A DNA stretch of 32,000 nt from Candidatus Saccharimonadota bacterium (GCA_041659445.1 JBAZYG010000002.1:120001-152000); one strand, 5' to 3'; positions 4,809 to 25,768 are shown, counted from the stretch's first letter. Numbers and translations: made by a program. The notes: generated by a model not told the origin, from the sequence alone.

Positions 4809-5678
4809 ATGGTAAAGCATGTTGATTTTAAGCGAAAAGAAATAATCATTCCAGGAGCAACAGTAATAACTTTAGATGCAGAATCTGCTTTAGGTTTTGC
4901 TCCAATTGAAGTTTATGCTCAAGCAAAAGCAAAAATAAAAAAAGATTTCATAGACAATGAAAGAGCAATAAAATCTTTAACTAACGGAATTAATTTTGAA
5001 ACATTAAAAGGTTCTCAATTTTTTTGGAATAATTATTTGAATAATTTTTTAAAAGAGCAAGGAATAAATGGAAGAATAATGAATATAAATGATTTAGGAA
5101 ATATTTATGCTTTAGATAAAAATTTCTTTGAAAATCATTATTCTGATACAATAAATTTATGTTTAAGAAGTGAAGAAATTGGTTGGAAAAATAATAAACA
5201 TATTTTAGAAGATTTAGTTAAACAAGTTAAATCAAGAGAAAAAAGTTTTTCTCCAAAAAATCCTTTAATTATTTCTAATTTAGAAATTGTAAGTGATAAT
5301 AATTCAAATAATTTTTATGGGCTTTTATTAAAACTTAAAGAAGATTCAATTCTTGAAAATGATGAAAGATTTGCTTTTGGAAAAAATAAAATAAAATTTG
5401 AAAGTTTATTTGGAGATGTTGAAAAGAATCTTTATACAAAAGAAAAAGATTTGTCTAGGGTTTATGCGAATGATAGTCAGAATGTGAATGGTGACAATGA
5501 CGTTTTGCATGATTCCAATGATAATGGCTGGGTGGTTTTTGTGAGCGACGAAGTCGCGAACTCTTCGCAAAATTTTAAAGAGCATTTAAAAAGTCTCAAA
5601 GAAGAAAGAGATAAGCAAATTACAGAAATAAATCAAAGATACATTCAAGCATTAGATATTTTGAAAGGAAAAAAATAA
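4809..5678 (+). CDS. DGR variable (target) protein, otherwise unknown family
   Basis: 289 aa. The VR is in frame (LSRVYANDSQNVNGDNDVLHDSNDNGWVVF, residues ~215-244), and the corresponding TR codons are AAY-rich (Asn). No signal peptide or TM segment is visible. Confidence 0.7.
   Translation: MVKHVDFKRKEIIIPGATVITLDAESALGFAPIEVYAQAKAKIKKDFIDNERAIKSLTNGINFETLKGSQFFWNNYLNNFLKEQGINGRIMNINDLGNIYALDKNFFENHYSDTINLCLRSEEIGWKNNKHILEDLVKQVKSREKSFSPKNPLIISNLEIVSDNNSNNFYGLLLKLKEDSILENDERFAFGKNKIKFESLFGDVEKNLYTKEKDLSRVYANDSQNVNGDNDVLHDSNDNGWVVFVSDEVANSSQNFKEHLKSLKEERDKQITEINQRYIQALDILKGKK
5451..5540 (+). repeat. DGR variable repeat (VR)
   Basis: 78/90 identical to 5852-5941. VR carries G/T where TR has A at 5472, 5493, 5502, 5503, 5511, 5531, 5532, 5535 and 5539. 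Confidence 0.8.
5545..5568 (+). promoter_or_regulatory. GC-rich hairpin(s) immediately 3' of the VR (DGR target-recognition hairpin candidate)
   Basis: gcgac-gaa-gtcgc (5545-5557) overlaps gcgaa-ctc-ttcgc (5556-5568). This is an isolated GC island in AT-rich DNA, absent downstream of the TR. Confidence 0.55.
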
Positions 5679-5702
5679 AAATTCATTTTTCTTCTTAACT
5701 TT

Positions 5703-5720
5703 CCTATCCTTGAGGATAGG
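5703..5720 (+). other. Perfect 7-bp stem hairpin cctatcc-ttga-ggatagg downstream of the target gene stop
   Basis: Direct reading. A related tatcc-aaa-ggata hairpin occurs at 5938-5952, just after the TR. Confidence 0.4.
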
Positions 5721-5790
5721 CCACAAGCTCTTTTATTAGTGGTTTCAAAAACCCAGTGAAATTCAACTTTGACAATTTGTAATTAAAATA

Positions 5791-5798
5791 TTATAAAA
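5791..5798 (+). promoter_or_regulatory. Candidate TATA box (ttataaaa) for the TR-RT transcript
   Basis: It lies ~54 nt upstream of the TR start, which would place the TSS near 5820 so that the TR and RT are co-transcribed. Confidence 0.3.
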
Positions 5799-5851
5799 TT
5801 GAAGAAGCGGTGGCTAACTTTAAGTTAGATAATTGGTAAAAGGGCTAAATA

Positions 5852-5941
5852 TTGTCTAGGGTTTATGCGAATAATAGTCAGAATGTGAATTCTAACAATG
5901 ACAATTTGCATAATTCCAATGATAATGGCTGAATGACTTAT
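5852..5941 (+). repeat. DGR template repeat (TR), noncoding
   Basis: Cognate of the VR. In the VR reading frame it encodes Asn-rich LSRVYANNSQNVNSNNDNLHNSNDNG and then a TGA stop, so it is not itself part of an ORF. It ends 20 nt before the RT ATG. Confidence 0.8.
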
Positions 5942-5960
5942 CCAAAGGATAGATAATAAT

Positions 5961-6953
5961 ATGGATATTTATAATGAAACCATTTCTTTAAAAAATTTAA
6001 TTTTTGCTTATAAAAAAGCAAGAAAAGGAAAAACAAAAAAAGATTATGTAATTAAATTTGAAGAAAATCTTGCTTACAATTTAAAAATTCTCTATGATGA
6101 ATTAAAAAATGAAACTTACAAACCAAAACCTTTGCAATCTTTTATTTTGAGAGACCCAAAAACTCGTAAAATTTCAAAATCAGATTTTCGCGATAGGATT
6201 GTTCATCATGCATTATGCAATATCCTTGAACCAATTTTTGAAAAAGTATTTATTTATGATTCTTGTGCAAATAGAAAAAACAAAGGAACCCTATTTGCAT
6301 TACAAAGATTTGGTAAATTTCAAAGAAAAGTTACGCATAATTTATCAAAACAAGCATTTTGTTTTAAGGCAGATATTAAACATTATTTTCAAGAAATTAA
6401 TAGGGATATTTTATTAAAAATATTGGAAAAGAAAATTAAATGTTCTAAAACTATAAATTTGATTCAATTAATCTTAAATAACTTTGAAAGTAAAAAAGGA
6501 ATGCCTTTGGGAAATTTAACTTCTCAGTTTTTTGCAAATGTTTATTTAAATGAATTAGATTATTTTGTAAAGCACGAACTAAAAGTAAAATATTACTTGC
6601 GTTATGTTGATGATTTTGTTATTTTGCATAAGTCAAAAGAGCAATTAAAAATCTGGAAAGAGCAAATTAATTATTTCTTAGAAAGTAAATTAAAATTAGA
6701 GCTTCATACCGAAAAATCAAAAATAATTAATTTGTCTTCAGGTTTGGATTTTGTTGGTTTTAGAAATTTTTATTATTTTAAATTGTTAAGAAAAAGAAAT
6801 ATTTTGCAAATCATTTTTAAAATTGAATTATATAAAAAACAAGATATTAATAATAAAAATATATTGGATGTTTTTCAAGGATGGAATGCTTGTGCAAAAT
6901 GGGCAAATAGTTTTGGTTTAAGAATAATTCTTTTCTTAATTTTAATAATTTAA
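5961..6953 (+). CDS. DGR-type reverse transcriptase
   Basis: 330 aa with RT motifs RDPKTRKISKSDFRDRIVHHAL, GMPLGNLTSQFFANVYLNELD (the [IL]GxxxSQ DGR signature), YLRYVDDFVILH (YxDD) and GLDFVGF. The 3' end overlaps the convergent secY stop by 4 nt. Confidence 0.85.
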   Translation: MDIYNETISLKNLIFAYKKARKGKTKKDYVIKFEENLAYNLKILYDELKNETYKPKPLQSFILRDPKTRKISKSDFRDRIVHHALCNILEPIFEKVFIYDSCANRKNKGTLFALQRFGKFQRKVTHNLSKQAFCFKADIKHYFQEINRDILLKILEKKIKCSKTINLIQLILNNFESKKGMPLGNLTSQFFANVYLNELDYFVKHELKVKYYLRYVDDFVILHKSKEQLKIWKEQINYFLESKLKLELHTEKSKIINLSSGLDFVGFRNFYYFKLLRKRNILQIIFKIELYKKQDINNKNILDVFQGWNACAKWANSFGLRIILFLILII

Positions 6954-19457: not shown

Positions 19458-20263
19458 TTTTTCTCTCCTGAAAATTTATTTTCTAAATCCTTGATTGCTT
19501 TTTCAGTATAAATTGTTAATCTTCCTGGTTTTCCTTTTGCTAAATCCAAAATATTCAATTCTTTAACTTGCTTAACGTCGAATGCAGTTGTCTTTAATTT
19601 TTCATCATTTCCTAAAACCAAAAGTAATCCTGCATTTTTTTTGTATTTTCTTCCTCTTAATTTTCCAATTCCACTTCTTATTTCTTTTTTCTGAATTGAA
19701 ACTTCAAATAATTCTGTTCCAAGGATTTTTTTAAAAGAAGTTATCAATTCCCTGATTTTTAATTCAGTGATTTTAGATTCAACAATTAAAGGAAGTTTTG
19801 TAATTTCTTTGTTTCTTAATCTTTCATATTTTTGTTTTAAATATTTTTCATTAGCAGTTGCACTTAATGCAGATTTTAATCCGAGCAATAATTCTTTTTT
19901 GTTTATTTTTAAATCTAGAATTCTTGAAATTGCTTTTGGAGGATGTGCTCTTCTTCCGCCACGAGTATTTGGAACTCCAGCAGCAACCCAATTAAATTGA
20001 GTACCTTTTCTTGACATTGTTTTTCTTGGAACTCTTGACATTCCTCTTCCATATTGACTTTTCCAAGCGTGTCTTTTATGGACAATTTTTCCTGAAACAG
20101 AAGATTGATTTCCTGCACTTGGGTTTGAACCGTAAGGATGTTGAATTTTTCTTATTTCAAGAATTTTATAAATAATATCTTCTCGAACTTTTTCAGTAAA
20201 GAATTTAGGTAATTCAATTTCTTTTCCAGATTTTCCGTCGATTGTTAGTATTTTTGCTTTCAT
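19454..20263 (-). CDS. rpl4: 50S ribosomal protein L4 (uL4)
   Basis: HAWKSQYGRGMSRVPRK ... GGRRAHPPK pattern. Confidence 0.9.
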   Translation of the reverse strand: MKAKILTIDGKSGKEIELPKFFTEKVREDIIYKILEIRKIQHPYGSNPSAGNQSSVSGKIVHKRHAWKSQYGRGMSRVPRKTMSRKGTQFNWVAAGVPNTRGGRRAHPPKAISRILDLKINKKELLLGLKSALSATANEKYLKQKYERLRNKEITKLPLIVESKITELKIRELITSFKKILGTELFEVSIQKKEIRSGIGKLRGRKYKKNAGLLLVLGNDEKLKTTAFDVKQVKELNILDLAKGKPGRLTIYTEKAIKDLENKFSGEKK

Positions 20264-20610
20264 CTTAAAATTTCCTCTGTTTGTTTTAATAATAAATTAT
20301 CTAAACTTATTTTTCCTTCTTCTGCTAATTCTCTAAATTCTGGAATGTATTTTTCCACTATTTCTTCAGGAACTATTGTTGGACGAGTTTCATAATTTGC
20401 ATTTATGAATTTTTTTAGATAGAAGTTTAATTGTTTTTTTTGTTCCATTATACATTCTCTTTTCTCTTCTGGAGTGTAATTAAATGTAGAGATCTCTCTT
20501 TTAGCCATTGAAAGTGTCATGGAAATTAATTCTTCAAATCTATTCACTTCTTTTTTCATATGCTCTTCCATGCCTTCTTCTAGTTTTTGTTGATTTATTT
20601 GATATTTCAT
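20260..20610 (-). CDS. Orphan ORF a inserted between L3 and L4
   Basis: 116 aa, helical and acidic, no recognisable family. ATGA overlaps with both the L3 stop and the L4 start. Confidence 0.5.
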   Translation of the reverse strand: MKYQINQQKLEEGMEEHMKKEVNRFEELISMTLSMAKREISTFNYTPEEKRECIMEQKKQLNFYLKKFINANYETRPTIVPEEIVEKYIPEFRELAEEGKISLDNLLLKQTEEILR

Positions 20611-21566: not shown

Positions 21567-21644
21567 TTGTTATCCTTATTGTGTTTACTAACGCGGATGT
21601 TTTCATTTTACTTACCCTGGAATGATTTATCAAGAAAAACTTGG

Positions 21645-21652
21645 TTTATAAA
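21645..21652 (-). promoter_or_regulatory. Candidate TATA box (tttataaa) of the ribosomal-protein operon, 78 nt from the L3 ATG (leadered, unlike other units)
   Basis: This is the only clear TATA-like 8-mer in 21567-21671. AGGA lies 7 nt upstream of the L3 ATG. Confidence 0.35.
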
Positions 21653-21671
21653 GGTTACTGGGATGAAAATT

Positions 21672-22514
21672 TTATAGTTCATTTACTTTTTCAAGAGATT
21701 TAATGACTTCTGAATAATATAATCCTGGAGTAGAATTAGGATTATATTCAAAATTTATTAAAATAGATATCATTTTCCTCCTTCCATTTTCCCCATAATA
21801 ATAAAATTCCTGTTTTGAAAGTTTATAATTAAAATGGGTTGCTTTCTTTATTATCAATTTAACTAAAGAAATTGTTACAAATTCATAATATTGAATTTCA
21901 TCTGTTGAAGGAAATTTTTCTTTAAACATTTGAATAAACTCATTATTGTGTTCATCAGAAAGGTTTGAATTTAAAATACTCTTCAATTTATCTTTAAATT
22001 CCAGTTCATCTTCAGCCTCAGTTTCTGGAAAAGTCAAAAATAGAGAAAATTTATTATAATTCTTTTGAAATTGAAATAAAAGATCTAATATCCGTTCTAT
22101 AGAAGTATCATTCTTCGATAAATTTCCATCTAAATCTAAATTAATTACATCAACGGGGAAAAAAGTTGTTTCACCATTTATTAACTTATTATATTTTTCC
22201 TGAAAAAATCTTCCAATTTCATATGGGTGTGTTGTAGCATTGACCAATTTTTTAGCGAGTTTATTATGGATACTGGTTAATCTCTCAAAACAAATAACTT
22301 TTCCTTTGGTAATTGTGCAGGATTCTGTTTCGTTCTCTTCCCAATCAATTATTCCTTCTTCTTTAAATAATCTTAAATCTTGCATTTCATCGGAAGGCAA
22401 AGTTATTATAGAACATTCCTTTTCTTCTAATTTGCTTATCTCTTTAATGAATTCTACCCACTTTTTACGAATAAATTCTTTATGTCTTGAATTATTTTTA
22501 TAATTTGAAACCAT
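21672..22514 (-). CDS. Unknown protein, third gene of the MTase-GHKL operon (candidate effector/specificity partner)
   Basis: 280 aa from MVSNYKNN, whose ATG lies 1 nt after the GHKL stop (TAAAATG junction). The track start at 22541 would overlap by 26 nt. Only a weak Rossmann-MTase-like ordering is visible: IITLPSDE ... VICFER ... DVINLDLDG. Confidence 0.55.
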   Translation of the reverse strand: MVSNYKNNSRHKEFIRKKWVEFIKEISKLEEKECSIITLPSDEMQDLRLFKEEGIIDWEENETESCTITKGKVICFERLTSIHNKLAKKLVNATTHPYEIGRFFQEKYNKLINGETTFFPVDVINLDLDGNLSKNDTSIERILDLLFQFQKNYNKFSLFLTFPETEAEDELEFKDKLKSILNSNLSDEHNNEFIQMFKEKFPSTDEIQYYEFVTISLVKLIIKKATHFNYKLSKQEFYYYGENGRRKMISILINFEYNPNSTPGLYYSEVIKSLEKVNEL

Positions 22515-22515
22515 T

Positions 22516-24141
22516 TTATTTTTTTGAAGAATTCCATTCATCTATTTTTTGATAAAATAATGTTTTTAATTTCTTTATATCTCCTCCTGATTCTGAATAA
22601 GCAGACTCAAAAATTAAGAAGATATTTTCTAAAATATCCCAATCCTTTTTCTTATACCTTTCCTTGATTTTCTTATCGACATAAATTACCGAAGAATTAT
22701 CTTTTTGCTTAGAAATACTTAGAGGAGTATTCTTAATCAAATCTAATTTTTCTGTATTAGAGTCTTCCTCTATTTCTTTAAAAACAACTTTACTAGATTC
22801 TAAAATATTTTTTTGATTATTATTTTTATTCTCTTTTTTCTTCTTGTTTCTTTCCTCTTTTCCCCATTTGTACAATCCCAAAGTCATCTTTGCAAATATC
22901 TCTTCTGCTAGAAGTTTATGTAAGTAGTTTTGCAATGCTAAAAAATGGGGGTGAGTTTCTCTGAAAGATTTTCTGTCAATATTCATAGCGGCTTCCAATC
23001 CTTCTTCAATGTACACTTCACCAGAAATCCAATTTCGAAGAATCTGATTCGTATAAGTTGGATAAGATAATAATGAACTATCAAAACCAAATCTTGGTGC
23101 AACAGGGACATTCTTTATTCTTATCGCAACTCCATTTAATTCTCTAGGAAATATGGTGGTGTTTTGAGCATAAAAATATCCTTTAAATTTAATCATTTCA
23201 TCATTAATCTTTATTTTTTCTGCAAAAGAGATAAGATCAAATTTAACACCTTCTCTTTTTGGAAAGAAAATTGGTTTTTTTAGAAATATTCCGTCTAAAT
23301 CAACTTTAAAATTGAATTTTGTATGCATTTCTTTTATTTCTTCAATAATCTTATTTTTAATGCTCTCAACAGGACCTTCTTTAATATATTCAACAGGAAT
23401 ATATGAAGCCAAATCAATTATAAATTGTATATATGCATTATCCTCTTTAAAAGTTCTAAGCTTTGTTTTATAATGATGCTCGAGTAAATCACGCATATCT
23501 TTAAAATAATTTAAGGCAAAATCTTTATTCCTTTTCTTAGCTAATTCTGAGAAATATTGTCTATCATTAAGTAAATCTCTTACAGTATTTTTTAATCCAA
23601 CCAATCTTATTATTGTATAATGTTCATTTTTATCTTCATCAGAATTAATCAATTCATAAGATCCTTTGATTATTCCCCCATCTACTTCTATATTCTTTTC
23701 CCTAAATTCCTTGAAATTTATCTTTGCAGTAAATTTTATTGATTCATCTTTCTTTGTTGAGATTATCTCGAGTTCATCACAAATCTCATTAACTGCTATA
23801 AAGCCTATACCAATTTTACCAATTAAGGGTCTATTCGATTTGGAATATAATCCTTTATTTCTTTTATTAGATTTACTTATCCATGCAAAATTTTCGTCAA
23901 ATTCTAAGGCATTCATTCCTTCGCCATCATCAATTATAGTTATAATATCCTGAATAGGTTTTATTCTAATTGTAACTAGTTTAGCATCGGCATCAAAAGA
24001 ATTATTTATTAATTCTTTAATACAACTAGCCGGAGAACTATAAATTCCGGAACTTAAATCATCAATTATTTTTGCATGAACTTTTATATTTCCAGATTGA
24101 GATATATCCTTTTCTAAAGTTATTTTCTTTTCTTCAACCAT
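22516..24141 (-). CDS. GHKL (Bergerat-fold, HATPase_c_3 / MORC-MutL-Hsp90-like) ATPase
   Basis: N-box ELINNSFDADA, G1 box DDGEGM, G2 box GKIGIGFIAVNE in the first ~120 aa. The ~400-aa C-terminal region is unassigned. The gene overlaps the MTase stop by 8 nt. Confidence 0.75.
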   Translation of the reverse strand: MVEEKKITLEKDISQSGNIKVHAKIIDDLSSGIYSSPASCIKELINNSFDADAKLVTIRIKPIQDIITIIDDGEGMNALEFDENFAWISKSNKRNKGLYSKSNRPLIGKIGIGFIAVNEICDELEIISTKKDESIKFTAKINFKEFREKNIEVDGGIIKGSYELINSDEDKNEHYTIIRLVGLKNTVRDLLNDRQYFSELAKKRNKDFALNYFKDMRDLLEHHYKTKLRTFKEDNAYIQFIIDLASYIPVEYIKEGPVESIKNKIIEEIKEMHTKFNFKVDLDGIFLKKPIFFPKREGVKFDLISFAEKIKINDEMIKFKGYFYAQNTTIFPRELNGVAIRIKNVPVAPRFGFDSSLLSYPTYTNQILRNWISGEVYIEEGLEAAMNIDRKSFRETHPHFLALQNYLHKLLAEEIFAKMTLGLYKWGKEERNKKKKENKNNNQKNILESSKVVFKEIEEDSNTEKLDLIKNTPLSISKQKDNSSVIYVDKKIKERYKKKDWDILENIFLIFESAYSESGGDIKKLKTLFYQKIDEWNSSKK

Positions 24142-24967
24142 TTTTTAGTCTTTTAATTCCAAAAGAAACATACTTTTTATCTATTTCTATTCCCACGGAT
24201 TTTCTTCCTAAATCTTTTGCTGCCTTATTTGTTGTAAATGTTCCAGCATAGCAATCTAAAACAATGTCGCCTTTATTGCTACTTGCTTTTACAAAAACTT
24301 TTAATAATGGGAGAGGCAATTGACAAGGATGTTTTTCTTCTCTATCTTTTGAGACATTTTTTAACAAATTAAAATTTAAAAAATCAGGCATTTTTTCTTT
24401 AAAGATTTCAAATAAATCTTTTCCTTCTAAGCCATCATAAGGGGTTCTTCCTTTTTTCCCTTGTTCGATTAACTTTTTTATTTTTCCTACATCTGGATTT
24501 TTATAAGGTTGTAAGATAGCATCTTTATTGAATGTATTCTTCATAGTTTTTGTATAAAACAAAATTGATCTCTGAGTTCTTGTATAATTTGTTTTTGAAT
24601 GGCCTATATTGGAGGGATAATGCCAGGTTATCCATCTTCGAAATATCAATCCAGTTTTGTCAAGCATGGGCATACAATAAGCATTTACTTCTGGATAATT
24701 TATTAAATATAAACTTCCATCATCAGTGAGAATACGTGCCATTTCTCTTAATCTTTCTTCTAATTCTTTAAAATATTGATTCCACTTTTTTTTATCATTA
24801 TATTCATTATACTTCAATCCAATGTTATAAGGAGGATCTGTAATTATTAGTTTAACTGAATTATCAGGAATTTGTTTTAAAACTTCTAAACAATCTGCAT
24901 TAAATAAATAATGATTCCCGTTAATAATTTTGGCTTTTGGTTTAATTTTTCCTAAAAAACTTATCAT
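24134..24967 (-). CDS. Beta-class (N6-adenine or N4-cytosine) DNA methyltransferase
   Basis: Motif IV IITDPPYNIG lies N-terminal, with HPCQLPLPLL and motif I VLDCYAGTFTT C-terminal. This circular permutation is typical of beta-class amino-MTases. Confidence 0.8.
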   Translation of the reverse strand: MISFLGKIKPKAKIINGNHYLFNADCLEVLKQIPDNSVKLIITDPPYNIGLKYNEYNDKKKWNQYFKELEERLREMARILTDDGSLYLINYPEVNAYCMPMLDKTGLIFRRWITWHYPSNIGHSKTNYTRTQRSILFYTKTMKNTFNKDAILQPYKNPDVGKIKKLIEQGKKGRTPYDGLEGKDLFEIFKEKMPDFLNFNLLKNVSKDREEKHPCQLPLPLLKVFVKASSNKGDIVLDCYAGTFTTNKAAKDLGRKSVGIEIDKKYVSFGIKRLKNG

Positions 24968-24990: not shown

Positions 24991-24998
24991 TTTTATAA
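24991..24998 (-). promoter_or_regulatory. TATA box (ttataaaa on the minus strand), 23 nt from the MTase ATG; dedicated promoter of the three-gene operon
   Basis: The minus strand reads tgTTATAAAAtaaaagatagatactctaaaaatATG. Confidence 0.4.
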
Positions 24999-25063: not shown

Positions 25064-25768
25064 TCACGCTTCAAACTCAAAATCTTTCTTTGATTCAACA
25101 CTATCAATCTTTGAATGTCGAATTATTTTCCCTTTTCGTGTTGATTCTTCTCTAATTTTAGCATAATCCTCGCTGTTCTTTAAATTTGCAGGAACATTTA
25201 TTGATTCAATTACAAAATCATGTTTTATTTCAGCTTCTTTAAAATCATTTTTTTCAAACACAAAACTTTTTCCAATATTTTCATCTTCTGTTATTAACTT
25301 GCAAAAATCTGGTTTAACGTCTTTATCTCCTTTTCCTGGTTTTCCTGATTTCGGAGCTTTTGGTTTTATTTTTAAAGTATAATTCTCAAATGAAAGACTC
25401 AATGCAAAAAAATTCTTTGGAAATTTGTTCAGCAATCTTAAAATTTCTTCTCCAGACATTTCTTTGTCAATAGAATAATTTTTTACACCTTGAAATTGTG
25501 AAACTTTAACAAATTCAATTTCGCTTTTCAAATCATTTGTGGAAATTATTGAACCTGTTATTTTTGTTTTTGCTTTTCCAAGTTTTTCAGCAAGAATTCT
25601 TACAAATTCATTTGCAAATTCCGCACTTGTATTTATTGTGAATTTATTTTTTACTTTTTTAACAGAAACTACAGCCCTGTCTTTGAATTCTCCTTTAGAA
25701 AATTTTTGAAATTGTAAATGCACAAGATTATCTATTTTTTTATCAACTATCTTTTTTATGAAATTCAT
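25064..25768 (-). CDS. Hypothetical protein (two domains joined by a Lys/Pro/Gly-rich linker)
   Basis: 234-aa ORF with a TATA box 22 nt from its ATG. The linker is KPKAPKSGKPGKGDKDVKPD. No family recognised. Confidence 0.45.
   Translation of the reverse strand: MNFIKKIVDKKIDNLVHLQFQKFSKGEFKDRAVVSVKKVKNKFTINTSAEFANEFVRILAEKLGKAKTKITGSIISTNDLKSEIEFVKVSQFQGVKNYSIDKEMSGEEILRLLNKFPKNFFALSLSFENYTLKIKPKAPKSGKPGKGDKDVKPDFCKLITEDENIGKSFVFEKNDFKEAEIKHDFVIESINVPANLKNSEDYAKIREESTRKGKIIRHSKIDSVESKKDFEFEA

Follow-up and report, generated by a model that had tools for sequence, protein, structure and literature searches.

Does a trio of minus-strand genes beside the gene for ribosomal protein L3 form a defence system, and if so, what takes the place of a restriction nuclease? 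The trio lies in a window of 32,000 nt (the whole stretch of DNA analysed; G+C ~27%) from a Candidatus Saccharimonadota bacterium (GCA_041659445.1 JBAZYG010000002.1:120001-152000). An initial annotation had described it as a tightly coupled operon of a DNA methyltransferase, a MORC-like GHKL ATPase and an unrecognised protein. In a database search, the window matched a MAG assigned to Candidatus Pacearchaeota. All three ORFs are intact, and the coupling was confirmed from the sequence, as were all the motifs quoted at the time (DPPY, ELINNSFDADA, DDGEGM and GKIGIGF). The features, listed in the direction of transcription, are as follows.

24991-24998, minus strand: TATA-like octamer TTATAAAA, 23 nt 5' of the methylase ATG (assigned by position)
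24134-24967, minus strand: gene 1, beta-class N6/N4 DNA methyltransferase, 277 aa (PF01555, 1.2e-51)
24134-24141, minus strand: 8-nt overlap ATGGTTGA of the methylase and GHKL genes, indicating translational coupling (methylase stop TGA, 24134-24136; GHKL start ATG, 24141-24139)
22516-24141, minus strand: gene 2, GHKL (Bergerat-fold) ATPase, 541 aa (PF13589, HATPase_c_3, 2e-18)
23572-24087, minus strand: GHKL ATP-binding domain, aa 19-190 (invariant columns of alignment A2, 47 sequences)
22942-23394, minus strand: middle/transducer domain, about aa 250-400 (column counts, model secondary structure)
22519-22941, minus strand: long Lys-rich helix, aa 398-447, and small C-terminal alpha/beta domain, aa 451-540 (model, column counts)
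22512-22518, minus strand: TAAAATG junction from the GHKL gene to gene 3 (stop TAA, 22516-22518; one A; ATG, 22514-22512)
21672-22514, minus strand: gene 3, 280-aa partner with a predicted class I methyltransferase (Rossmann) fold that lacks the Gly-rich SAM loop (AF2, Foldseek)
21567-21671, minus strand: 105-nt spacer separating gene 3 from the gene for ribosomal protein L3, where the module ends (gene coordinates)

At other loci, gene calls place the junction between the GHKL gene and gene 3 anywhere from a 17-nt overlap to a 6-nt gap. Gene 3 would encode 289 aa from an alternative upstream ATG at 22541; the 280-aa start matches database record P0001 with 100% identity and coverage and agrees with the N-termini of homologues. 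The L3 gene (20607-21566) follows downstream, as originally reported, and no terminator-like hairpin was found in the 105-nt spacer. The trio had also been credited with its own TATA box. The octamer TTATAAAA is indeed present at the position given, but the window contains 19 copies of this 8-mer where chance predicts 17.6, so that it is suggestive by position alone. It is compatible with an archaeal promoter, without counting as evidence for one.

The GHKL ATPase and its methyltransferase-fold partner

The ATPase has at least 351 full-length relatives. Its full set of ATP-binding motifs is intact, with E43, N47, D50, D71, G73, G75, G108, G111, G113 and T176 invariant across A2, and the middle-domain arginine is retained as well. 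Invariant positions of the middle domain are K289, W371, E375, E383 and R390. The domain also contains the loop AMNIDR, an N-x-x-R loop which we take to resemble the catalytic-arginine loop of Hsp90. The conserved stretch E375-R390 is explained by ATPase catalysis rather than by cleavage. Following the loop are H397-P-H399, of which H399 is kept in 32 of the 47 sequences, and an invariant H408. The helix and C-terminal domain (aa 398-540) have conserved residues at K498, E505, F511, E512, G520, K524 and F529 but yielded no family or fold match specific to that region; they possibly serve in dimerisation.

Assignment of gene 2 to the GHKL group stands, its domain being of the HATPase_c_3 type found in MORC proteins. 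The MORC label itself does not: Pfam gave no match to the MORC S5 family at E ≤ 0.1, and the middle-domain loop is Hsp90-like. Moreover, a Foldseek search with the AF2 model (pLDDT 86) ranked the N and M domains of Hsp90, TRAP1 and GRP94 first, followed by TopoVI-B and MORC3, the latter at rank 38 after many Hsp90-family entries. Gene 2 is therefore Hsp90/paraMORC-like, not MORC proper. In sequence, the ATPase domain is closest to the HgiDII/BbrUII restriction enzymes. The NCBIfam model restrict_BbrUII (NF050001) matched it at 8e-23, though only over aa 19-189 and model positions 3-173 of 659, scoring 80.8 bits against a membership cut-off of 550. In hhalign, it aligned with the N-domain of a family relative from a Yersinia phage (P37) at 99% probability, with ~36% identity over 162 columns. 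Orthology to housekeeping proteins was rejected both for Hsp90 (HtpG; 44 bits against a cut-off of 455) and for MutL (40 bits against 180), each model matching the ATP-binding domain only.

Gene 3 had been said to match nothing recognisable, which no longer holds. Its AF2 model (pLDDT 89.7) retrieved exclusively AdoMet methyltransferases from PDB and BFVD in Foldseek, many with a probability of 1.0 but with TM values of merely 0.3-0.5, and displays the seven-stranded Rossmann-like fold of class I methyltransferases. The Gly-rich motif I (SAM loop) is absent from all members of the gene-3 family; the loop after strand 1 reads T-F/L-P-A/S-E-E, with no conserved Gly. Invariant residues are K12, R16, W19, T38, E77, N125-L-D127, Q150 and Y240. 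No methyltransferase family in Pfam or NCBIfam includes gene 3, and no sequence relative was found in the PDB. By sequence, gene 3 is distantly related to the uncharacterised family PP_RS20740 (NCBIfam NF047698 / Pfam PF28273), which it matched over aa 128-271 at 6.5e-12 (45.4 bits against a cut-off of 200). All its relatives likewise match in the C-terminal half; their scores, with that of gene 3, span 38-92 bits, as expected of distant kin rather than members, and precomputed PF28273 matches of the relatives are graded 'faint' or 'weak'. The protein from Pseudomonas putida that gives the family its name is a hypothetical protein from a furfural-tolerance screen (PMC9630843). The gene-3 superfamily comprises at least 772 protein clusters at 50% identity, in Bacteria and Archaea, and in one relative the gene-3-like domain is fused to a TIR domain. 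That gene 3 is a housekeeping enzyme was ruled out.

Consistent with the initial annotation, no nuclease was found in the trio. Searches of Pfam, NCBIfam and PADLOC detected no nuclease family in the ATPase or gene 3, and Foldseek returned GHKL/Hsp90 and methyltransferase folds only; judged by its predicted fold, gene 3 is not a nuclease. The trio has one half of a classical type II restriction-modification (R-M) system, a methyltransferase with intact catalytic motifs (DPPY as motif IV and a variant motif I, DCYAGTFTT), but for the other half shows no recognisable nuclease domain of the PD-(D/E)xK, HNH, PLD, GIY-YIG or half-pipe type. In PADLOC-DB v2.0.0, gene 3 matched no signature (including those of Mza, Hma, BREX, DISARM and Shedu), the methylase matched only generic MTase_II models (4.6e-56), and the ATPase matched only the type II restriction enzyme model REase_II PDLC03419, through its ATPase domain (1e-10). 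Beyond this domain match, neither the ATPase nor gene 3 corresponds to any validated or candidate system of that database; the score against the MzaB model was 21 bits versus 850.

Conservation of the pair and exchange of the third partner

A GHKL gene lies directly upstream of the gene-3 homologue on the same strand in 16 of 16 first-round loci, and directly 5' of it in all 57 metagenome loci with at least 1 kb of upstream sequence, and the junctions are tight throughout. The two proteins show correlated pairwise identities (Spearman 0.65). What is conserved is thus the GHKL/gene-3 pair, with the methylase as a replaceable third partner. Trios were found in Bacteroidota, ANME-2 and other metagenome contigs, so the expected co-occurrence of the genes across genomes is borne out, except that only the pair is invariant. 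Within the close clade, the minimal trio occurs more often than any other form. Carriers are sporadic (Bacteroidota, Pacearchaeota, ANME-2, Methanoperedens, Nanoarchaeota, Clostridia and Phycisphaerae), and searches of collections of phage, plasmid and viral contigs yielded no member of the module. Genes flanking related loci include those of type I R-M, GmrSD, Mrr-STAND, YobI, toxin-antitoxin systems, IS elements and resolvases, and some relatives have a separate SF2 helicase with a weak PLD match as well as an SMC-like ATPase.

These data bear on the view that there is no system at all, the genes being unrelated neighbours or the GHKL gene a housekeeping Hsp90 or MutL orthologue. Such a view could point to the adjoining ribosomal-protein operon and to a base composition equal to that of the rest of the window. 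It is refuted by the co-occurrence statistics, which speak against adjacency by chance, and is opposed by the translational coupling of the genes, leaving it with hardly any credibility. Similarity to Hsp90 and MutL is limited to the ATP-binding domain (E ~1e-5 to 1e-12, far under the family cut-offs), and the sporadic distribution and variable flanks, often with restriction, toxin-antitoxin or IS genes, exclude orthology.

What fills the third position depends on the gene-3 clade, with one kind of enzyme in each: N6/N4 methylases, C5 methylases (often accompanied by Vsr or a mismatch glycosylase) or B12-binding radical-SAM enzymes. Linkage to DNA-modifying enzymes is exclusive: in all 16 pairs with at least 2.5 kb of sequence on either flank, a gene for a DNA methylase or a B12 radical-SAM enzyme lies no more than 6 kb away. 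Among methylases of one class, identity follows that of the GHKL proteins. Together with the clade-specific choice of partner, this indicates functional coupling. At the same time, one methylase class has been exchanged for another while the GHKL/gene-3 pair was conserved.

Gene 1 of the window is a beta-class amino-methyltransferase, as first proposed, and also matches the NCBIfam adenine-specific methyltransferase model PRK11524 (2e-48, under its cut-off). It is an ordinary, compact protein with no extra docking domain, and shares 22-35% identity with the methylases of related loci. Its DPPY is atypical, every other PF01555 partner having SPPY, and suggests N6-adenine as the base modified here. 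The window may thus carry a swapped methylase of uncertain compatibility with the pair.

The C5-methylase versions include Vsr or HhH-GPD mismatch glycosylases, and the SPPY-methylase versions a UDG-like gene. Such repair genes usually accompany R-M systems that methylate cytosine. Together with the linkage to modifying enzymes, this places the pair in the 'R' slot of R-M-type operons. The same genes could be read differently, with the pair serving as MutL does for Vsr in very-short-patch repair, correcting deamination or mismatches that arise from a cytosine methylase and leaving foreign DNA alone. MutL is itself a GHKL ATPase, a parallel also drawn by Iyer et al. (PMC2292703), and nearly all PF01555 partners have the cytosine-type SPPY. 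Note, however, that Vsr and mismatch glycosylases do not discriminate between the models, because ordinary C5 R-M systems carry them too. The trio of the window has neither Vsr nor a glycosylase, and with a DPPY methylase the repair of deamination is irrelevant. An entire clade is tied to B12 radical-SAM enzymes instead of methylases, and the defence-island context and the TIR fusion favour a role in conflict. We regard a repair function as improbable.

The TIR fusion could also belong to an addiction or abortive-infection system, in which the ATPase and gene 3 would form a toxin directed at the host (gene 3, for instance, as an active though atypical methyltransferase of nucleic acid or of a small molecule, controlled by the ATPase) and the methylase would be only an antidote or stabiliser. 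The module is mobile, toxin-antitoxin genes flank several loci, and the conserved polar residues E77 and N125-L-D127 of gene 3 occupy the positions of methyltransferase motifs II and IV. However, the SAM loop is missing throughout the family, there is no sign of a non-DNA target, and linkage is specific to DNA-modifying and DNA-repair enzymes, making such a toxin quite unlikely.

A restriction-like reading of the module

We favour, with a probability of roughly 55%, the interpretation that the locus is an ATP-dependent R-M-like defence module, with the methylase on one side and the GHKL/gene-3 pair on the restriction side. The PF01555 methylase would mark the host's own DNA. The ATPase and the gene-3 protein, products of coupled genes, would act as one complex, the ATPase serving as a dimeric, ATP-driven clamp of the Hsp90/MutL/MORC kind. 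Gene 3, having lost the SAM loop, would most likely be a DNA or base 'reader' that probes the modification of the target; this role is conjecture, since none of the relatives of gene 3 is characterised or has a solved structure. Using ATP, the complex would engage foreign DNA that lacks the mark, followed either by cleavage through a so far unrecognised active site or by a block and hand-over to another nuclease. Candidate catalytic sites would be, in the ATPase, the H397-x-H399...H408 cluster and, in gene 3, E77 / N125-L-D127. In favour of this reading are the obligate pairing, the clade-specific linkage to modifying enzymes, the kinship of the ATPase domain with the HgiDII/BbrUII enzymes, the invariant ATPase residues, the defence-type distribution and the paraMORC precedent. 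Against it count that no nuclease domain or fold was detected in either protein, which leaves restriction a putative outcome, that E375-R390 is explained by ATPase catalysis and H399 is not invariant, that the methylase of the window is atypical, that PADLOC-DB gave no more than the domain match, and that collections of phage, plasmid and viral contigs yielded no member.

Alternatively, the trio may methylate without restricting. The pair would then load or activate the modifying enzyme, as MtsA/MtsB do for MtsC in MANTIS or BrxC does in BREX, for ATP-dependent epigenetic marking or as no more than the modifying part of a system with its effector located elsewhere. In MANTIS, ATPases can be needed for methylase loading and turnover (bioRxiv 10.64898/2026.09.23.753747). 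A trio without nuclease and a clade-specific partner fit this arrangement, and the SF2 helicase and SMC-like ATPase of some relatives would be possible real effectors. On the other hand, PF01555 and C5 methylases usually work alone, and the methylase of the window offers no domain for docking. Exchange of methylases on a conserved pair is easier without intimate contacts between the two, and no other form is as common in the close clade as the minimal trio. We consider this arrangement unlikely.

A more far-reaching version of the restriction-like reading is put forward tentatively. The module would represent a new restriction machinery, which either couples a base-flipping reader of modification status, derived from a methyltransferase, to an Hsp90-like clamp with a new nuclease site, or neutralises foreign DNA without cleavage. 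For the sister clade, this version would make a B12-dependent radical-SAM enzyme the writer of the 'self' mark, and hence imply an undescribed DNA modification.

Relation to known systems

The closest precedent is R.HgiDII, a genuine restriction enzyme that begins with a GHKL domain and whose C-terminal part is unassigned (PMC2441816). The R.HgiDII/R.BbrUII family shares with our module the GHKL domain, the adjoining methylase gene and the lack of a recognisable nuclease fold (PMC2441816). In contrast, HgiDII-type enzymes are single polypeptides of ~660 aa with C5 methylases, whereas the module always has a separate methyltransferase-fold partner, and the C-terminal two-thirds of the former resemble neither the middle and C-terminal domains of our ATPase nor gene 3.

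GHKL 'paraMORC' ATPases were predicted in R-M systems in 2008, as the initial annotation noted (PMC2292703). Compared by description, the module agrees with them in its GHKL and transducer-type middle domains, in an R-M-type neighbourhood with C5 or adenine methylases and Vsr, and in sporadic lateral spread in bacteria and archaea. For one paraMORC family a conserved HxH motif was proposed as nuclease site; H397/H399, following the middle domain, recalls this paraMORC5 motif by description and is a lead only. The SF2 helicases and RE-fold nucleases described there as partners are absent from our trio. Conversely, sections 4-6 of that paper contain no mention of a partner with a methyltransferase fold, of B12 radical-SAM partners or of two genes forming an obligate unit. 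The claim that the module is undescribed thus needs qualification: GHKL proteins in R-M systems were predicted and HgiDII-type enzymes are real, but our literature search found no description of the GHKL/gene-3 pair or the gene-3 partner.

The triplets of Bell et al. 2021 (PMC8011034) resemble the trio in combining a methylase (there a C5 methylase), a soluble protein with N-terminal HATPase_c_3 and a small Rossmann-like partner. They differ in having HEF_HK and a second HATPase_c and a receiver-like partner (Response_reg_2), and are mostly proteobacterial. BREX and MANTIS/Gao_RL likewise use a methylase to mark self DNA, and include an ATPase believed to control recognition and a small co-factor proposed as modification reader. 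However, their ATPases are of the AAA+/ORC type (BrxC, MtsA), their methylases are large gamma-class enzymes with target-recognition domains, and MANTIS has a PLD-helicase nuclease. The trio includes none of the signature proteins of these systems.

Should the pair prove to be the restriction half, a widespread class of R-M-like immunity would emerge in which an Hsp90/MutL-type ATPase and a repurposed methyltransferase fold replace known nucleases. The pair would then bear on how long-known GHKL restriction enzymes such as HgiDII work, on the prokaryotic roots of MORC-type chromatin ATPases responsive to DNA methylation, and on whether a possibly new DNA modification is made in the clade linked to radical-SAM enzymes. 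Cultured carriers make a direct test feasible: Mucilaginibacter frigoritolerans ATCC BAA-1854, M. corticis, Chitinophaga sp. and Reichenbachiella sp.

Gene order and surroundings of the locus

In the window, which originates from a Candidatus Pacearchaeota MAG with a G+C content of ~27%, three intact ORFs are present on the minus strand, with the junctions described in the initial annotation.

Genes of the locus
24134-24967, minus strand: gene 1, methylase, 277 aa (ORF call)
22516-24141, minus strand: gene 2, GHKL ATPase, 541 aa (ORF call)
21672-22514, minus strand: gene 3, 280 aa (ORF call; start backed by homologues and the public record)

The methylase and ATPase ORFs share 8 nt (ATGGTTGA), the junction between genes 2 and 3 reads TAAAATG, and the L3 gene begins 105 nt beyond gene 3. 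The TATA box proposed for the operon was found at its position but carries no statistical weight: the octamer occurs 19 times in the AT-rich window against 17.6 expected, and a sigma-70 promoter scan remained at background level. It was therefore dropped as evidence. Two neighboring ORFs were rejected as parts of the system, an upstream ORF of 234 aa (25064-25768) and one of 116 aa; both had 0 homologues in the 109 related loci fetched and 0 family matches. The 116-aa ORF (20260-20610, minus strand) lies between the L3 and L4 genes, with a 4-nt overlap on each side.

At the end of the ribosomal-protein cluster opposite the methylase-ATPase module, adjoining SecY, what looks like a retron-like or other reverse transcriptase-based element of a DPANN archaeon occupies 4809-6953 (plus strand). 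It contains a match to Rfam RF03019 'RT-16 RNA' at 5703-5853 (69 bits; gathering score 50), directly followed by a 330-aa reverse transcriptase ORF (5961-6953; RVT_1, 5e-22) and preceded by a 289-aa ORF without family match (4809-5678).

A conserved ATPase/gene-3 pair and its partner enzymes

We retrieved 24 close relatives of gene 3 and over 350 full-length ones of the ATPase. The three genes co-occur elsewhere, in the same order, on contigs of several lineages: a Bacteroidetes MAG, ANME-2 archaea, several unassigned metagenome contigs and eleven GTDB species, all Bacteroidota, among them cultured Mucilaginibacter, Reichenbachiella and Chitinophaga. The ATPase gene adjoined gene 3 in 16/16 non-redundant loci. 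Scanning metagenome contigs with a gene-3 profile yielded 76 non-identical loci. Of these, 57 extended at least 1 kb upstream, and every one of the 57 had a GHKL gene immediately 5' of the gene-3 homologue on the same strand. In loci with gene calls, the junction varied between an overlap of 17 nt and a gap of 6 nt, and pairwise identities among the ATPases correlate with those among the gene-3 proteins (Spearman 0.65). Given this constant adjacency, the tight junctions and the co-varying identities, the conserved unit is the pair of GHKL ATPase and gene 3, not the trio. That the genes adjoin by chance or serve a housekeeping role is very improbable.

Two loci carry signs of decay or mobility. 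On an ANME-2 contig, an IS1 transposase separates methylase and ATPase (L006:5112-6238), and a Bacteroidia MAG encodes a truncated ATPase of 210 aa without a methylase (L022:9350-9982).

Gene 1 belongs to the N6/N4 methylases (PF01555, 1e-51) and contains the motif DPPY noted initially. Of the 13 loci in the close clade, to which the window copy belongs, 12 encode a PF01555 methylase together with the pair; the sole exception has a truncated ATPase. The gene is upstream of the pair in most loci and downstream in both Mucilaginibacter loci. Close-clade methylases fall into two classes of about 425 and about 315 aa, both SPPY, and the nearest ATPase relatives of the window copy (65-67% identity) have a methylase only 24% identical to that of the window. 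The methylase classes have been swapped while ATPase and gene 3 stayed conserved. Under the established motif rules, SPPY is the mark of N4-cytosine enzymes. Motif IV is SPPY in every PF01555 methylase linked to the pair elsewhere (L001-L034, L069-L107) in contrast to DPPY in the window, and motif I is AGTFTT in the window versus GSG in the others. With its DPPY motif the window methylase stands apart from the others and may write m6A; in the window copy the methylase may have been exchanged or have diverged.

In other clades the pair has a different partner, either a C5 cytosine methylase, often with Vsr or a MutY/EndoIII-type glycosylase (fused or separate), or a B12-binding radical-SAM protein. 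A methylase or B12 radical-SAM gene was present within 6 kb of 16/16 pairs with at least 2.5 kb of sequence on each side, with one partner type per gene-3 clade (single linkage, 38% identity). This clade-specific match with partner chemistry would be in keeping with a putative 'reader' function of gene 3. In a sister clade without DNA methylase, the radical-SAM protein is encoded directly downstream of the pair (L007:9685-10890, L010:9841-11268, L012:9607-10752), and the same arrangement occurs in about 17 metagenome loci (e.g. L036, L037, L049-L054). If the radical-SAM enzyme writes a 'self' mark, this would be a DNA modification yet to be described. A role as methylase loader or epigenetic machine, for which the analogy is MANTIS, is rather unlikely, though the foremost alternative to a restriction-modification (R-M)-like defence module.

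A DGQHR (DndB/DpdB-like) protein is also encoded in some close-clade loci, as is a UDG-superfamily protein whose motifs are GSFP and PSPGSP. A larger cluster is conserved in other loci.

Accessory genes and larger clusters
UDG-superfamily protein of ~250 aa beside the trio, joined by a DGQHR protein in five cases, six Bacteroidota loci: L001:8919-11424, L015:12216-14779, L019:12279-14834, L018:3676-6896, L020:3870-7725, L016:6220-6999
L025:5184-15071, uncultured archaeon: larger cluster, complete
L028:3559-13115, Nanoarchaeota MAG: larger cluster, complete
L039:4023-9966, unassigned metagenome contig: first part of the larger cluster

The DGQHR protein is present in 5/6 of the UDG-bearing loci and measures ~590 aa, except in L018 (343 aa). 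L019 is a locus of the cultured Mucilaginibacter frigoritolerans ATCC BAA-1854. By analogy with Vsr and HhH-GPD proteins beside C5 methylases, both proteins probably serve an N4-cytosine methylase in repair or regulation; this parallel, and the lack of both genes in the window, led us to reject them as effectors. The larger cluster has the order ATPase, gene 3, SF2 helicase (with a weak PLD-nuclease match in L039), small ORF, SMC/AAA_15 ATPase, DNA_S_mod_dnd_assoc_4, radical-SAM protein and PF01555 methylase.

Folds and motifs of the two proteins

Gene 2 is a GHKL ATPase (HATPase_c_3, 2e-18) containing every Bergerat motif initially listed. Its confidently predicted structure (pLDDT 86) comprises a GHKL domain, a middle/transducer domain, a 50-residue Lys-rich helix and a small C-terminal alpha/beta domain. 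Foldseek ranked the N and M domains of Hsp90, TRAP1 and GRP94 first, with TopoVI-B and MORC3 lower. Thus, of the proposed MORC-like GHKL assignment, the GHKL fold and ATP-binding motifs stand, but the protein is not a MORC proper. All ATP-binding positions, K289 and R390 are invariant, the latter within an A-M-N-I-D-R loop similar to the catalytic-arginine loop of Hsp90. This loop is followed by H397-P-H399 (H397 in 42/47 and H399 in 32/47 sequences) and an invariant H408. The cluster recalls the HxH motif of paraMORC5, for which Iyer et al. proposed a role as nuclease site (PMC2292703).

The model of gene 3, likewise confident (pLDDT 89.7), matched only AdoMet-dependent class I methyltransferases in the PDB and BFVD, although TM-scores were low (0.3-0.5). 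It lacks the glycine-rich SAM loop; invariant polar residues (E77; N125-L-D127) occupy methyltransferase motif II/IV positions, and a basic N-terminal helix contains invariant K12, R16 and W19. Sequence searches returned no relative in the PDB and no match in the local Pfam copy. A weak match to the uncharacterised NCBIfam family PP_RS20740 (45 bits versus 200) does not make gene 3 a member of that equivalog family. At 50% identity, the gene-3 superfamily comprises 772 clusters (E <= 1e-3), 57 of them at E <= 1e-30. A 476-aa metagenome protein, P0303, combines a gene-3-like (PP_RS20740-like) domain with a C-terminal TIR domain, which resembles the TIRs in anti-phage proteins of retrons and of Thoeris type III. 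The fusion connects the family with immune effectors. A role as toxin/antidote or abortive-infection module is nonetheless improbable.

As noted initially, no obvious nuclease motif is visible, and none was found in gene 2 or gene 3 by Pfam, NCBIfam, PADLOC and PDB sequence searches or by Foldseek. [quoted passage not shown]

A proposed R-M-like module and its relation to known systems

An ATP-dependent, R-M-like defence module is the best-supported reading (probability roughly 0.55), and the restriction/defence idea of the initial annotation holds in its core. It is based on the modifying enzyme, the repair companions of cytosine methylation and the position of the pair in the restriction-gene slot of R-M-type operons; on a sporadic, laterally transferred distribution; on flanks of defence islands and mobile elements; and on an ATPase domain akin to that of a GHKL protein proven to be a restriction enzyme (PMC2441816). 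The methylase would mark self DNA, while the GHKL dimer and the methyltransferase-fold subunit would sense unmodified DNA and act on it. Such a module would work like R-M systems and like the systems with paraMORC ATPases that Iyer, Abhiman and Aravind predicted (PMC2292703). A role as MutL-like repair accessory is improbable. In Pfam, NCBIfam and PADLOC profile searches the ATPase fell outside both the MutL and Hsp90 families.

In profile comparisons, the BbrUII/HgiDII restriction enzymes are the family nearest to the ATP-binding domain. However, the ATPase is not a member (81 bits versus 550), and beyond the GHKL domain these enzymes are unrelated to the rest of the ATPase or to gene 3. The idea that gene 3 is the C-terminal domain of HgiDII in detached form was rejected (hhalign probability 3.7%). 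The locus belongs to none of the PADLOC v2 systems. The locus is a variant of the GHKL-ATPase-containing R-M-like systems, with an atypical DPPY methylase in the window copy. A literature search of incomplete coverage, with MADS gene content outside it, returned no publication on the obligate ATPase/gene-3 pair, on the methyltransferase fold of the partner or on the radical-SAM variant.

The pair was not found in the phage, plasmid and viral contig collections searched; the P2-like Yersinia phage P37 (MT239398.1) carries only an HgiDII-type gene. There (L109:3977-7022), a C5 methylase is followed by a 670-aa GHKL relative of BbrUII/HgiDII, which scores 329 bits against the family cut-off of 550 and is annotated only as a hypothetical protein.
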